Shown here: one piece after another, positions 8,760 through 38,380 of the stretch
Layout: every line of letters begins with the position of its first letter
How positions within the stretch are numbered: position 1 is the stretch's first letter
Source: Alphaproteobacteria bacterium
Lineage (GTDB): Bacteria > Pseudomonadota > Alphaproteobacteria > Bin95
Assembly: GCA_964291285.2 (NCBI GenBank)
Contig: OZ219785.1
Location: forward strand, 352,001 to 416,000
DNA length: 64,000 bases
Direction of reading: 5' to 3'
Notes under the pieces: model-generated
Told to the model about the DNA's origin: nothing
Seen by the model: only the letters and a program-made list of their open reading frames with translations
Databases searched by the model: none
Program-made: the position numbers and the translations under genes

Positions 8760-8884
8760 GATAATTCGCACGGCGCCCGCCGGTGCTGGCGCCCCTTCGG
8801 GCCCCCGTGAATCGCGAAGCCCGTCTTCGCCCGTTCGACGCCGCGACCGAACGGCAACGGGCGCGCCGGCCCGTTCGCATCTCC

Positions 8885-9495
8885 CATTTCCACGAAACAT
8901 GAAATATTTCCAATATTTTTGACTTCTGTTCGTGTTTTGATCTTGACATCTGGCGGATTGTGATATGATGGTCCCCAGGGAAGCGGACTCCGGAGCCGCG
9001 TCCCCGGGTGCCGCGCGGCCGAGCGACGCCGGTTTCTGAAAACCCGTGAGAAGCCGACGGGAGACGTGCGTCCTGCGTCTCGCGCGCGCAATCAGGCGCG
9101 CGAACCGCGCCGGCGCCGACACGCGCCCGGGCAGGCGCGGGCGCCCGCGCAGGATACGCGCGGAAAAGGGACCCCCTCCCCGTCGGAGAAGAGAGGAGAG
9201 ACGATGACCGCAACCGACCCCCAACTGGCCGCGATGCCGGCCGAAAAGCTGGCACCCGCCGCAGAGGCCCTTGCCAGCGCCTATGCGGAGGATAGGAGCG
9301 CAGCGCCGGCGGGTGGCAGCGCATGCTCCTCTTCCGCCCGGCGGGGGAGGAGGTCGAAGAGCGGAAAGCCCCATGCCCGAAACGGCTACAGCATATGAAC
9401 CCTGCGCATGCAGAACATGACATCTCATGACATATCGGAACACATGGCGAAGGAGGCCGGGCGCGCCTCATGACAAAACATGACATCCCATGACA
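8885..9495 (+). repeat. Dispersed element copy A (promoter, conserved leader 9059-9170, RBS + 64-aa ORF 9204-9398, CATGACA arrays)
   Basis: Shares GCGCAATCAGGCGCGCGA core and flanks with 23990-24110 and 37455-37577; CATGACA at 9416, 9426, 9469, 9479, 9489. Confidence 0.8.
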
Positions 9496-9579
9496 CGCAG
9501 GGGGTTCCTGCGACCGGGCGGCTTCGCGCGCGCCGCTTGCCAAACCGGGCCGGACGGAGTATCCCGCCGGCCTCGGCGA

Positions 9580-9654
9580 GACCCCATCGTCTAGAGGTTA
9601 GGACACCACCCTTTCAAGGTGGAGACACGGGTTCGATCCCCGTTGGGGTCACCA
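9580..9654 (+). tRNA. tRNA-Glu (anticodon TTC)
   Basis: GACCCCA/TGGGGTC acceptor stem, CCACC-CTTTCAA-GGTGG anticodon arm, GTTCGATC T-loop, encoded CCA; TTGCCA-17-TATCCC promoter upstream. Confidence 0.96.
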
Positions 9655-23744: not shown

Positions 23745-24260
23745 TGTCATGAGATGTCATGGTTTACCGTGAAGGCCTGCGGGACACCACGCGATATGTC
23801 ATGAAATGTCATGTTTTGCATGCGCATCGAGCATGTCCCACGGCTGAATCAGGCATGAGGTGGTCGTTTCGGGCGGAGCGTCCGGGTATTCCATCCCGTT
23901 TCCCGGGTTCTGCATCTTCGGCATCGGCTTCTCCTCTCGATCCATCTTCGTTCCAATGTTCCTGCCGCTGGCTCTTCAAGGCGGCGGGACCCTAATTCGC
24001 GCGTAATGTGCGCGGGCGCCCGCGCCTGCCCGTGCACGTTCCGCGGCGGCGCGAATCGCGCGCCTGATTGCGCCTGCGCGCGCGAGGCCGAACACAGGGC
24101 ACACGTCTCCTGCCCGCTGCCAAGGGTCTCCTGGCACCGGCATGGAAGACGAAGCAGCCTCCGGATGCCGCTTTCTTCCTCCTGTCCCATACTATCATGG
24201 ATTTCCGGGGATTTGCTCTTATCAGAGAAATAATTCTGGATTAGTGAACAAAAACACTTC
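23745..24260 (-). repeat. Dispersed element copy B (leader 23990-24110, RBS + 41-aa ORF 23799-23924, CATGACA arrays)
   Basis: TGTCATG at 23745, 23755, 23797, 23807; GCGCATGCAAAACATGACATTTCATGACATATCG nearly identical to copy A. Confidence 0.78.
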
Positions 24261-35335: not shown

Positions 35336-36292
35336 ATGAATTCCCTGAACGCCATTCGCCTGTTCACCGCCTCCGTCGATGCCGGCAGCTTCTCCGAGGT
35401 AGGGCGCCGGCTCGGCATGGCGCCTTCCTCGGTGTCGCGGCAGGTCGCGGCGCTGGAGGACAGCGTGGGCGCCCAGCTCATTCACCGCACCACCCGCAAG
35501 CTCAGCCTGACGGAGGCCGGGCGGCTCTATTTCGAGCGCGTCTCGCGCATCCTGGCGGCGCTCGACGAGGCGTCCGCCGCCGTCTCGCATCTGGAGGAGT
35601 CGCCGCGCGGCGTGCTGCATGTCAACGGACCCACGGCCTTCGGCGTCCGCCATGTCGCCCCGGCGCTCCCGGACTTCCTTGCGCGTTATCCGGAAGTGCG
35701 GATCGAGCTCACGCTCACCGACAATTTCGTGGACCTTCTGGAAGTGGGCGCCGATGTCGCCGTGCGCGTGGGCGAGCTCGAGGACTCGAGCCTGATCGCG
35801 CGCCGGCTCGCGCCCAACCGGCGCGTCCTCTGCGCCAGCCCCGGCTATCTGGCCAAGGCCGGATCGCCGGATCGCCCGCAGGACCTCGCGGACCACAATT
35901 GCCTCGTCTATACGCGCCACCACGGCAGTGTGAACTGGAACCTCGGCGGCCCGGACGGGCTCGCGGAAGTGCGCGTCGGCGGCAATCTGCGCACCAACAA
36001 CACCGAGGCGGTCCATGCCGCGGCGCTCGGCGGGCTCGGCATCGCGCTCCTGCCCTCCTGGCTGGTGGGGCAGGAGGTGCAGTCCGGCCGGCTCGTCGAA
36101 GTGCTGCCCGGCTACCGGGCCGCGCCCGGCGCGCTCGACACCGGCATCCACGCCCTCTACCCCGCCGACCGCCACCTCTCCACCAAGGTCCGCGCCTTCG
36201 TGGATTTCATGGTGGAACGTTTCGGCCCCCGCCCCTACTGGGAGGAGACGCCGGAGGGCAGCGCCGGACCGGATCCCCGGATGGCGCGCTGA
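35336..36292 (+). CDS. LysR family transcriptional regulator
   Basis: GSFSEVGRRL..SSVSRQVAALE..LIHRTTRKLSLTEAG; substrate-binding domain. Confidence 0.94.
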   Translation: MNSLNAIRLFTASVDAGSFSEVGRRLGMAPSSVSRQVAALEDSVGAQLIHRTTRKLSLTEAGRLYFERVSRILAALDEASAAVSHLEESPRGVLHVNGPTAFGVRHVAPALPDFLARYPEVRIELTLTDNFVDLLEVGADVAVRVGELEDSSLIARRLAPNRRVLCASPGYLAKAGSPDRPQDLADHNCLVYTRHHGSVNWNLGGPDGLAEVRVGGNLRTNNTEAVHAAALGGLGIALLPSWLVGQEVQSGRLVEVLPGYRAAPGALDTGIHALYPADRHLSTKVRAFVDFMVERFGPRPYWEETPEGSAGPDPRMAR

Positions 36293-36390
36293 AAACCGCG
36301 CGCCCGCGTCCGGAATCCCGGCCTGGCGAGGGCGGCCCAAGGCCGGCCGCCGCCGCAGGCAGCGCGGCGCGGCCGCGGACACCTGCGGAA

Positions 36391-37715
36391 TGTCATGAAG
36401 TGTCATGTTTTGTCATGGTCGGGGGCGGAACCGGCGTCCTCCGGGCCGGTCCTCCGCTTCTTCCCCTTCTTCTTTTTCTGCTTCTTCCTCCTCGCCGCCG
36501 GTCCGCTCCAATCGTCGTCTTCGTCGCCGCCCCGCTCTTCCCGTTCGAGGCGGCTCTGCCTGCGTTCCTCGACCTCCTCCGGGGCCCAGGGGTCGTAGAT
36601 GTCGTCGTAGCCGTTGCGGCGCTGGTATAGCCAGTCATGTTCGGCGCCGTCGGCCCGGTCGTCGTCGGTGCTGTCCTCGTGGCCGGGCGTGTCGGCGGCG
36701 GCCCACGGGCAGTCTTCGTAGGTCTCCTCCGGCGGGTCGTCGGCCGGCGGCAGGTCGTTTGCCGGCGCGGGCGGGGGGCCGAAGCCGACGGGCAGGCGGG
36801 AGCGCTCCTCGACGGCCGCGGCGAGCCTGCGGGCGGCCTCCTCATGCGCGGCCCCGTCGAAGCCCTCCTGCGCCTCCATCTCCTCGCGCCGCTCGCGGTG
36901 GCGGGCGAGCGCCCTCTCGGCCCGGTCCCGCCCCCGGCGCACGGCGTCTGCGAGCGGTCCGGGTTCGGTGCCGGTCTCCTGCGCCTCGCCCGCCTCGATC
37001 TCGCCGAACTCGTCCTCGTGCGGCAGCGGCCAGAGCCGGGCGCGGTTCGCGCCGGCCGGACTGACAAGCCCGGCGACCTCGGCCTGGAAGCGCAGTACCC
37101 GAAGCATCATGTAAGCCGAGCCGCTGGCGACGGCGGCGTCCCAGGCCTGCTCCGAGCGGGCGAGCAGGATGCGGGCCTCGTCGCGTTCGGTGCGCTTCCA
37201 GGACAGGCGGATGCGGCGCACGCGCTCAACGATGTAGGGCCGCTCCAGCAGGGCGCATCCGGTCTGCCTTGCGGAGCGCTCGGCATAGCCGGCCTGCCTT
37301 GCGGCGTCTGCGGCATTGCCGGAGGCGGTGTAGTGGCGGCAGAAGGCCTCCTGGCGGGTGGAAAGCGCGACGGCGGGGTCGATGACGGGCATGGTGTGCG
37401 GCTCCTTTGGTTCCGCTTCGGTTCGACGGCCATGCCGCCCCGGCATCGGAGCGACCCTTATCCGCGCGTATCCTGCGCGCGCCTGTGCCGGCGCGGGCGG
37501 GTGTCGGCGCCGGCGCGGTTCGCGCGCCTGATTGCGCGGGCGCGAGGCAGGCACAGGACGCACCTCGCCTGTCGGCTGAATCGGGGTCGTTCCGCACCGG
37601 GCCGGCGCGGGCGGGAAGCGGTCCGCGCGGACTTCGCTCACCTCGGACCCATTGTAGCACATTTTCCTAAAATGCAAGTCATGTTCTAGAATTTTTTCAA
37701 AATATGCGAACAAAC
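36391..37715 (-). repeat. Dispersed element copy C (longest; carries terminase-small-subunit-like gene)
   Basis: Leader 37455-37577 matches copies A and B; TGTCATG at 36391, 36401, 36411; TTGCAT-15-TACAAT promoter with extended -10. Confidence 0.8.
36403..37392 (-). CDS. Terminase small subunit-like HTH protein with acidic/basic low-complexity tail (329 aa)
   Basis: LSTRQEAFCRHY..SGNAADAARQAGYAERSARQTGCALLERPYI resembles the Terminase_2 N-terminus; AAGGAG RBS. Confidence 0.75.
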   Translation of the reverse strand: MPVIDPAVALSTRQEAFCRHYTASGNAADAARQAGYAERSARQTGCALLERPYIVERVRRIRLSWKRTERDEARILLARSEQAWDAAVASGSAYMMLRVLRFQAEVAGLVSPAGANRARLWPLPHEDEFGEIEAGEAQETGTEPGPLADAVRRGRDRAERALARHRERREEMEAQEGFDGAAHEEAARRLAAAVEERSRLPVGFGPPPAPANDLPPADDPPEETYEDCPWAAADTPGHEDSTDDDRADGAEHDWLYQRRNGYDDIYDPWAPEEVEERRQSRLEREERGGDEDDDWSGPAARRKKQKKKKGKKRRTGPEDAGSAPDHDKT

Positions 37716-37810
37716 AGTCGGCAAGCCCTCCCGTCTCCCCACCGGCCGCCACCTCTCCACCGAGGTCCGGGCTTTCGTCGATCTGCCGGTCGAACGCTGC
37801 GGTCCCGTCC

Positions 37811-38380
37811 CTACCGGGAAGACCCGCCGAAGGGCGCCGCAGACGCATCCCCGGTGCGTTGAAAGTCGGCCGCCTGCATCCCGTATCTCAGCACTTCCAG
37901 TCCGAAGGCGCGGACGAGGCCGGGGCCGCGTCTCATGCCGAGGCGCTCCAGCACCGCGATGGAGGAGGCGTTTTCCGGCAGGACGAAGGCCGCAATCTCC
38001 GGCAGCGCCAGCCTGTCGAACCCGTATGCCAGCGCGGCGCGCCCGCCTTCGGTCGCATAGCCCCGTCCCTGGACCGCGGGGTCGATCAGGAAGAGGAGCT
38101 CGGTCTCGCCGAACTCCGGCAGGCGCCTAAGGCCCAGATGCCCGACAAGGCGGCCCGAGGCGCGTTCGACGACCGCCCAGGGGCCGTAGCCATCCTGGTT
38201 CCACGCCTCGCGGAACGCCGCAAGCGTCGCATCGGACCGGCGCGCGGCTTCGGCCGCGTCCTCCGTATGGCTCGGCAGGAAGCGCGTCACGCCGGGCTTG
38301 CCCCGTATCGCCCGGTAGGCCGGCCCGTCGCCCTCCTCGAAGGGCCGCAGCAGCAGGCGGCCGGTATCCATCCGGGTCAT
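37811..38380 (-). CDS. GNAT family N-acetyltransferase (RimJ/RimL-like)
   Basis: TGRLLLRP, QGRGYATE, NASSIAVLERLGM. Confidence 0.88.
   Translation of the reverse strand: MTRMDTGRLLLRPFEEGDGPAYRAIRGKPGVTRFLPSHTEDAAEAARRSDATLAAFREAWNQDGYGPWAVVERASGRLVGHLGLRRLPEFGETELLFLIDPAVQGRGYATEGGRAALAYGFDRLALPEIAAFVLPENASSIAVLERLGMRRGPGLVRAFGLEVLRYGMQAADFQRTGDASAAPFGGSSR

Follow-up and report, generated by a model that had tools for sequence, protein, structure and literature searches.

Results

The leader and its copies in the window

The DNA analysed here, which we call the window, is a stretch of 64,000 nucleotides (nt) from contig OZ219785.1 of an uncultured sponge-associated alphaproteobacterium, whose genome (G000 in our set) measures 6.1 Mb in five contigs, with 68% G+C, and is 100% complete. 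On its forward strand, between a racemase-like gene and a tRNA gene, lie a promoter-like site, a GC-rich untranslated leader, a truncated open reading frame (ORF) and a tail of short direct repeats. The same arrangement recurs twice on the reverse strand, and we refer to the three as copies A, B and C. A first-pass annotation of the window had described positions 9059-9170 of copy A as a conserved multi-stem leader motif with three copies. We can say with confidence that this motif is the best-conserved core of an untranslated leader of about 230 nt, which forms the 5' untranslated region (5'UTR) of a high-copy cassette, so that instead of a three-copy motif we are dealing with a single part of a cassette that occurs about 90 times in the genome. 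The cassette family appears to be undescribed, as the result listings and abstract openings returned by a full-text literature search hold no description of such an element.

A covariance model built from 64 related leaders gives three strong matches in the window and none further, at 8963-9180 on the forward strand (copy A, 168 bits) and at 23980-24195 (copy B, 109.7 bits) and 37445-37657 (copy C, 173.9 bits) on the reverse strand. All three of the copies claimed earlier are therefore matched. Antisense matches have E-values of 0.1 or more, which makes the leader model strand-specific. The homology among A, B and C spans about 215 nt, beyond the 110 nt first annotated, and the bounds 9059-9170 were too narrow because the leader reaches about 110 nt farther upstream, to about 8975. 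In each copy the block is preceded by a promoter-like site and followed by a Shine-Dalgarno sequence with its ATG, just as the annotation had placed it.

In copy A (all features on the forward strand) the homology among 18 copies of the same subfamily starts with an AT-rich upstream part at 8888-8942, with a mean pairwise identity of 0.39. The promoter-like site follows at 8943-8969, with TTGACA at 8943-8948, a 15-nt spacer, TG at 8961-8962 and TATGAT at 8964-8969, and the leader itself would extend over 8975-9203, its start being placed from the position of the -10 hexamer. It begins with a 5'-terminal hairpin, H1, formed by GGGAAGCGG and CCGCGTCCC (8978-9004) and recognised as an inverted repeat with covariation. 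A small hairpin, H3 (CCCG...CGGG, 9043-9061), is present in some subfamilies only and precedes a core domain at 9066-9161, which is closed by GTGCG (9066-9070) and CGCGC (9157-9161). Within this domain the GCAATCAG hairpin (9080-9103) has its stem at 9080-9087 and 9096-9103 and its loop, GCAATCAG, at 9088-9095. The loop also opens the most conserved 25 nt of the leader, which run from GCAATCAG to CGCGCCG (9088-9112) and have a segment identity of 0.92-0.94. Downstream, a Shine-Dalgarno GGAG at 9195 and an ATG at 9204 introduce a truncated ORF of 64 amino acids (aa) with its stop at 9396-9398 (9195-9398 in all), and the tails occupy 9416-9496, with CATGAC at 9416 and 9426 and then at 9469, 9479 and 9489.

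Copies B and C both read on the reverse strand. The leader of copy B (23980-24195) has its loop at 24064-24071, H1 at 24144-24179 and a -10-like TAGTAT at 24189-24194. It is followed by a 41-aa ORF running from 23924 to 23799 and by two tails with CATGAC at 23808/23798 and 23756/23746 (23746-23924 for ORF and tails together), and the next gene begins about 85 bp past the tail. In copy C the promoter-like site and leader take up 37393-37677, with TTGCAT at 37672-37677, TACAAT at 37651-37656, H1 at 37613-37642, the loop at 37528-37535 and the Shine-Dalgarno sequence at 37400-37408. Copy C carries an intact ORF, P0001 (36403-37392, 329 aa), whose stop lies inside a tail of three CATGAC units 10 bp apart (36392-36417). 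Its neighbours, judged by eye from the ORF translations, are genes for a LysR-type regulator and a GNAT-type acetyltransferase.

A high-copy cassette with a phased tail

The order of the modules is constant in the alignments and consists of the AT-rich upstream part, the promoter-like site, the GC-rich leader, the Shine-Dalgarno sequence with ATG, a variable ORF and the CATGACA tail. When copy A was compared by BLAST with its own genome, 90 copies of the leader and 52 copies of a 3' block were found. A search with the 25-nt core, allowing up to three mismatches, gave 92 matches, 46 on each strand, while the reversed control pattern gave none, and the repeat is far above chance level. Cassette units are 0.5-1.5 kb in size. 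Their right border is sharp in copy A, and the left one is poorly defined and varies from one subfamily to another.

The tail is made of three CATGACA units at a spacing of 10 bp. As 10 equals 1 modulo 3, three units at this phase offer each reading frame a TGA, and also an ATG; the TGAs of copy A, at 9471, 9481 and 9491, cover all three. Predicted ORFs stop within the tail regardless of their frame because it has a TGA in every one. Neighbouring CATGAC motifs exactly 10 bp apart occur 275 times in the genome. A two-unit pattern defines 108 tail clusters, 90 of them with a leader on the same strand within 5 kb upstream and 18 solitary, although a few of the clusters with a single pair are probably chance matches. 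We know of no regulator that binds an array like this one at a 10-bp phase.

The tails also have a visitor of their own. An IS3-family insertion sequence whose ends start with TGGAGTGGGCCCC has 34 end-like matches, of which 18 lie downstream of a CATGAC tail at a distance of 45 nt or less (for example at C1:691020 and C2:1256607 of this genome and at locus L111), and its end follows a tail in a distant metagenome-assembled genome (MAG) as well. This element seems to target the cassette tail, as some insertion sequences target REP sequences. REP sequences are named as targets for insertion sequences in PMC1525189, which offers a parallel to the IS3-family element found beside the tails.

Internal deletions or frameshifts affect most cassettes. 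Of the 84 copies followed by a tail, at least 35 have a tail that begins less than 260 nt past the core, and such short copies amount to about 350 nt and consist of nothing but promoter, leader and tail.

Promoter and transcription

The promoter-like site combines TTGACA or TTGCAT, a 15-nt spacer, TGn and a hexamer like TATGAT, and by its sequence it would be a sigma-70-like promoter with an extended -10. The pattern TTGnnn-N14-18-TAnnnT is found in 45 of the 92 copies, 40 of them with TGn, compared to 17 of 3000 random windows, and most of the remaining copies show near variants of it when inspected by eye.

RNA libraries of two studies contain contigs that match the leader of copy A, at 8970-9053, 9001-9081, 9079-9162 and 9091-9174. 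This agrees with the leader being transcribed, but contigs of this kind cannot prove where a transcript starts. They sum many copies, so that neither the very high depth over the core nor the lack of cover at 8804-8937 in all four runs counts as evidence, and the AT-rich part is too diverged for them to be placed.

The short cassettes and the RNA-library contigs together raise the question of whether the leader works in trans, with the ORF-less cassettes being small-RNA genes whose common core would sequester a protein or base-pair with a target RNA. That at least 35 of the 84 tail-bearing copies are reduced to promoter, leader and tail would fit such a role, and so would the fact that these three modules are kept across species as the ORF decays. 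However, on the sense strand there is no terminator-like site after the leader or the tail, no complementary target was identified, and the short copies retain the Shine-Dalgarno sequence and ATG as decayed mRNAs would. The contigs do not show RNA ends or levels either, and we regard a trans-acting RNA as very unlikely.

Structure and conservation of the leader

The leader is non-coding, because the offsets between core and ATG fall in all three frames. We had considered it as an N-terminal coding extension, since it is in frame in copies A and C, and rejected this on the offsets seen elsewhere. With Rfam 15, the whole window yields only the tRNA at 9580-9651 and no other family at the gathering score, and a permissive search with the leaders of A, B and C returned no relevant hit and none at E < 0.05. 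The idea of a new cis-regulatory RNA put forward in the annotation holds up insofar as the element is non-coding, sits in a 5' leader, is strand-specific and matches no Rfam family, but convincing covariation is confined to H1, which lies outside 9059-9170. For the annotation's other suggestion of a ribozyme-like RNA, nothing in the analysis pointed that way.

Because RNAalifold gave a weak result on the 64 leaders, which were aligned with MAFFT, we tested hand-defined helices instead. H1 is paired in 90-91.4% of cells, four to five of its nine pairs are changed on both sides (five of nine in 85 distinct leaders), and G.U pairs number 57 against 29 A.C. The stem around GCAATCAG, which the annotation had drawn for all three copies, is perfect in A, has one non-standard pair in C and is disturbed in B, where 4 nt are inserted after the 5' arm and ahead of the loop. 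Across the leaders it is paired in 91.4-91.5% of cells with three isolated double changes. Its 3' arm has an alternative partner, 9095-9100 with 9106-9111 (CGCGCC), for which 95.3% of cells are paired without any double change. In the closing helix 98.4% of cells are paired, but its sequence hardly varies, and covariation therefore gives no test of it. The outer stem of GTCCTGCG and CGCAGGAT exists in A (9070-9077/9148-9155) and in C (37552-37559/37470-37477), as had been proposed. It is absent in B, and with 71.7% of cells paired over the 64 leaders we rejected it as a feature of the family. H3 was likewise rejected as a universal 4-bp helix, being paired in 62% of cells across all leaders, though it is perfect in copies like those with type-2 ORFs. 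Folding energy is of little help by itself; compared with shuffled sequences, copy C folds with a z-score of -2.93.

The loop had been called invariant, which does not hold for the genus as a whole. One related genome, G011, retains the stem, but its loop reads GAAAG or GCAGG and another sequence stands in place of the alternative partner. This variant favours the hairpin.

Conservation is uneven along the cassette. Among 74 copies the pairwise identity is 0.85-0.94 in the flanks of the loop, 0.50 in the promoter and 0.36 at the ORF start; these copies were picked for an exact loop, and the loop identity of 1.0 is therefore given by construction. Orthologous cassettes are found at two loci of this genome and of two related ones, G006 and G007. 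At one of them, next to a gene that we named ffh-like by eye from its N-terminal translation, the identity of G000 to G006 and G007 is 0.96 and 0.94 for the coding flank and 0.92 and 0.88 for the intergenic flank, which we use as neutral. In the same order the promoter gives 0.96 and 0.96, the H1-H3 part 0.89 and 0.97, the core 0.93 and 0.93 with the 25-mer unchanged, the variable segment 0.69 and 0.69, and the 3' leader 0.81 and 0.84. The type-2 ORF at this locus is intact in G007 and internally deleted in G000 and G006, from which we conclude that promoter, leader and tail persist upon loss of the ORF.

A proposed role for the leader

Our preferred reading, to which we give somewhat less than an even chance, is that the leader is a cis-acting 5'UTR RNA in which H1 stabilises the 5' end and the core is a site for factor docking or switching that all copies share. 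The leader would act as RNA and in cis, and H1, which lies 1-3 nt from the predicted transcript start, would protect the 5' end. The GC-rich core would be made up of the GCAAUCAG-loop hairpin, with a 3' arm that could pair downstream instead, and of the closing stem. As a common docking or switching site, the core may be met by one trans-acting factor, either a cassette protein or an RNA-binding protein of the host, and this factor would then set the RNA lifetime or the translation of all copies jointly.

A number of results weigh against this proposal. A standard promoter scan, which allows spacers of 16-18 nt only, found no site, although this follows from the spacer of 15 nt. The RNA-library contigs are multi-copy sequence, cannot show starts, strand or level, and may stem in part from DNA. 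RNAalifold on the 64 leaders predicts 15 pairs at -10 kcal/mol with a covariation term of -0.55, and going by the aligned sequences covariation appears convincing only for H1. The GCAATCAG stem has no signature of the sense strand, because its A.C mismatches (29) exceed its G.U pairs (18). Over the whole structure 81-88% of cells are paired, compared with 80.6-87.3% in shuffles, and the folding of copy A relative to shuffles has z-scores of -0.99 in sense and -1.22 in antisense. Five CG-rich segments are mutually complementary, so that comparison does not settle the fold of the core. Direct occlusion of the ribosome-binding site (RBS) is disfavoured as a mechanism, because the core is 93-190 nt from the ATG with variable inserts between them. 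Finally, the variable segment is species-specific at both orthologous loci, which indicates gene conversion among copies and tempers the argument from selection; concerted evolution could explain part of the conservation.

Much of this would also be expected if the core had no sequence-specific function at all, its copies looking alike through descent from recent master copies and GC-biased gene conversion, with hairpins that are by-products of a CG-rich sequence. The scarcity of covariation outside H1, the promiscuous pairing of CG-rich segments with copy A folding no better than its shuffles, the clear signal of concerted evolution in the variable segment and the decayed ORFs of most copies can all be read in this way. 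Yet the 25-mer is kept within three mismatches in hundreds of copies from 13 species whose flanking coding DNA differs by 4-17%, while in the same copies pairwise identity is down to 0.36-0.50 in the promoter, the H2 region and the ORF. At the orthologous locus fewer changes are seen in the core and promoter than in the neutral intergenic flank even though the ORF is deleted, and H1 does covary. We consider a core without function improbable.

If the leader is a functional RNA, as we prefer to read it, then it is an uncatalogued motif with roughly 900 copies in 13 species of an uncultured symbiont genus, and it comes with many natural variants.

Mobility and insertion sites

The copy A site differs between species. 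It is empty in G007, occupied by a tail alone in G002 and G015 and by another cassette in G005, and a contig from an RNA library joins 8761 directly to 9516. The flanks of copy C abut in G016. Within this genome, four contigs carry between them nine near-identical type-1 copies, whose flanks are unrelated. Other results speak against a classical transposon. No terminal inverted repeats join the two ends of A or C, which are the AT-rich part and the direct CATGACA array, and no target-site duplication was seen at the borders of the nine aligned type-1 copies, whose left border is fuzzy. The Y1 transposase family PF01797, whose enzymes recognise hairpins in IS200/IS605-type and RAYT/REP systems, has no hit in the genome, and the same search was positive in 6 of 14 control genomes.

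These data bear on the possibility that the core works as DNA, either as a site for a cassette protein or recombinase or as a single-stranded hairpin, in the copying, moving or recombining of the cassette. The differences between species at the copy A site and the nine dispersed type-1 copies are in line with it. So are the near-palindromic nature of the core, the finding that A.C is as frequent as G.U in the GCAATCAG stem and neither strand is favoured, and the module shuffling and concerted evolution, which imply frequent recombination between copies. However, distant relatives of the type-1 gene are multi-copy although they lack a GC-rich leader, and spread thus does not depend on it. The core lies about 110 nt inside the transcribed region in a single orientation relative to the promoter, no target duplication was seen in the nine aligned copies, and many copies are old and orthologous across species. 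The annotation's version of this idea, a hairpin recognised by a nicking protein, has lost ground in particular, as the complete genome is without a Y1/HUH transposase (PF01797) and the cassette without terminal inverted repeats. A role as a DNA site seems unlikely to us overall, if less so than the other alternatives to a cis-acting RNA.

Apparent clean insertion junctions at two further loci were rejected, since they turned out to be old orthologous copies. At a different locus of this genome (L012, C1:~939,200) the upstream gene lacks about 330 bp of its 3' part relative to G006 and G007, and the deletion ends at the left border of the cassette. Copy C is flanked by a 158-bp direct duplication, 73% identical, of the 3' end of the LysR-type gene (36172-36317 and 37737-37887). 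In G016 a single copy of this segment abuts the GNAT-type gene, which suggests that the cassette may have entered by a recombination that duplicated the segment. The spacer that holds copy A, from the racemase-like gene to the tRNA gene at 9580-9651 (8762-9579), is a hot spot that ranges from 30 bp to about 1 kb and differs in nearly all of 11 related genomes.

Cargo ORFs

The cassettes carry at least three alternative types of ORF, often as decayed remains. Type 1 is represented by P0001 in copy C, in which a helix-turn-helix (HTH) domain of the small-terminase (TerS) type at residues ~10-60 is the only recognisable part, the remainder being helical or disordered. Pfam assigns residues 11-74 to Terminase_2 (E 1.4e-11), the best PHROG is 51, and profiles of the Protein Data Bank (PDB) match DNA-binding domains of TerS at E 2e-4 over residues 10-58 only. 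An AlphaFold2 model has a predicted local distance difference test (pLDDT) score of about 90 only at residues 10-60, with a mean of 60, and its Foldseek comparison suggests a fold close to the SF6 TerS DNA-binding domain (template-modelling score 0.82-0.85). After the HTH, where an oligomerisation core would be expected, the predicted helices at 69-107 and 146-199 have a pLDDT of only 40-78, and against full-length SF6 TerS Foldseek reports E 3.8e-3 but with a root-mean-square deviation of 15 Å. No catalytic domain was found in the all-helical P0001 with Pfam or PHROGs, and a transposase-like cargo was not found.

Ten type-1 copies in this genome span at least 298 residues without stops, and such intact copies appear to be under constraint because 25 homologues share many invariant columns. 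At least ten intact terS-like genes thus occur in a genome without a large terminase of four Pfam families (PF03237, PF03354, PF04466 and PF05876, each with no hit; other large-terminase families were outside the search) and without a Y1 transposase, and they would be orphan HTH proteins.

Type 2 (P0002) is an acidic protein of 218 aa with about five intact copies. The ORF of copy A is a truncated type 2, as its N-terminus matches the intact 218-aa copies. P0002 matches no family in Pfam or PHROGs, and its best score in the ESM Atlas, 0.83, is uninformative. Type 3 is an ORF of 31-48 aa that starts with MPK and contains EYP...PE. With at least eight copies, including that of copy B (23799-23924, reverse strand), conserved with variation, it may be a real micro-protein.

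Range among genomes

Of the 16 other genomes of the genus, 13 contain the leader core, with 5-118 matches each, as against none of 20 genomes from two sister genera, which make up the rest of the order in our set; the reversed 25-mer has no match in any of the 37 genomes. The tail has the same range (13 of 16 and 0 of 20), the type-1 protein occurs in 12 of 16 and 0 of 20, and the type-2 protein in 14 of 16, two of these being weak partial hits. The three genomes of the genus without the leader (G001, G003 and G013) are all 100% complete. Beyond this set, related loci exist in MAGs of uncultured Alphaproteobacteria, including 'Rhodospirillaceae bacterium Spongia_Bin9', and an RNA library labelled as sponge metagenome contains pieces that are at least 99% alike. 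The leader core has no hit in viral contigs, and the leader matches nothing in phage and plasmid collections.

Distant type-1 relatives, at 45-58% identity in other alphaproteobacterial MAGs, are also multi-copy and have a TGAC-based tail at 10-bp phase, with a short AT-rich 5'UTR in place of the GC-rich leader. Since these relatives keep the tail without the leader, the gene and tail are the older unit and the leader is an acquisition of this genus.

In G011 (loci L090-L095) the leader variant with a GAAAG or GCAGG loop, which also has no AACCGCGCCGGCGCC segment, precedes all five type-1 genes examined, and this genome has 104 tail matches versus only five core matches. Leader matches often stand at the very ends of contigs in fragmented assemblies (G002, G004-G006, G009 and G014), and the cassette family is a main cause of short-read assembly breaks in these genomes.

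Comparison with known systems

The cassette is unusual in having neither transposase nor inverted repeats, in its alternative cargo, in a tail that provides stops and starts in all frames, and in old copies that keep promoter and leader minus the ORF. Whether it is selfish, domesticated or defensive bears on how symbiont genomes are shaped, and comparison with known systems can help to place it.

As an RNA, the leader can be compared with the 5'-terminal stabiliser hairpins of bacterial mRNAs, such as that of the ompA leader. H1 resembles these in its place at the predicted 5' end, 8 nt past the -10 hexamer, and is the one helix with covariation. Unlike a simple stabiliser, however, the leader continues with a GC-rich domain of about 200 nt and an almost invariant 25-nt core. 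It shares with the cis-regulatory families of Rfam 15 a 5'UTR location, a multi-hairpin look and a conserved loop, but none of these families matches.

As a repeat, the cassette invites comparison with the Correia elements of Neisseria, which are dispersed intergenic repeats, or miniature inverted-repeat transposable elements (MITEs), that bear promoters. Both are high-copy in one lineage, have their own promoter, are co-transcribed with neighbouring sequence, include many internally deleted copies and cause breaks in short-read assemblies. The cassette differs from Correia elements and other MITEs in that it has no terminal inverted repeats and no target duplication was seen. It also differs from Correia elements in its units of 0.5-1.5 kb with a long structured leader, an RBS and alternative ORFs, in the phased direct repeat at its right end and in the many copies that are stably orthologous across species.

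The type-1 protein has the same HTH DNA-binding domain as phage small terminases (SPP1/SF6 G1P; PDB 2cmp, 3zqq and 4zc3), and a phased repeat array at the end of the gene is, by analogy, reminiscent of a small terminase with its pac or cos site. Three CATGACA units at 10-bp phase also occur in ten IMG/VR viral contigs (loci L139-L142 among them). In four of the ten the array is 0.1-1.3 kb from terminase genes, and in L142 it precedes a terS of PHROG 51, the best hit of P0001, by 232 bp; in the others it stands beside a ParB-like or integrase gene. P0001 and the L142 terS have no pairwise similarity (E 51), and the shared PHROG profile is their only link. Differences from a small terminase are that only residues ~10-60 of P0001 match and no phage has a full-length relative, and that the type-1 genes lie outside any phage module, without a large terminase of the four Pfam families and with at least ten intact copies per genome.

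Going well beyond these likenesses, one could imagine a new class of dispersed modules made of a terS-like gene plus a phased repeat, present in several sponge-associated alphaproteobacterial lineages. A leader RNA acquired by this genus would let one trans-acting factor switch the output of about 90 promoters, with the GCAAUCAG core as its riboregulatory handle. The modules might then be decoy packaging-initiation sites against phages or seeds for the packaging and transduction of host DNA. We hold this picture to be a long shot.

A further comparison is with the TerS-encoding phage satellites of the SaPI/PICI type (Staphylococcus aureus pathogenicity islands and phage-inducible chromosomal islands), which redirect packaging and are islands of about 10-15 kb with integrase and replication genes, present in one or few copies. 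The cassette is unlike them in its units of 1.4 kb, its dozens of copies and its lack of an integrase, but it is like them in carrying a terS-like gene outside a phage, together with expression signals of its own.

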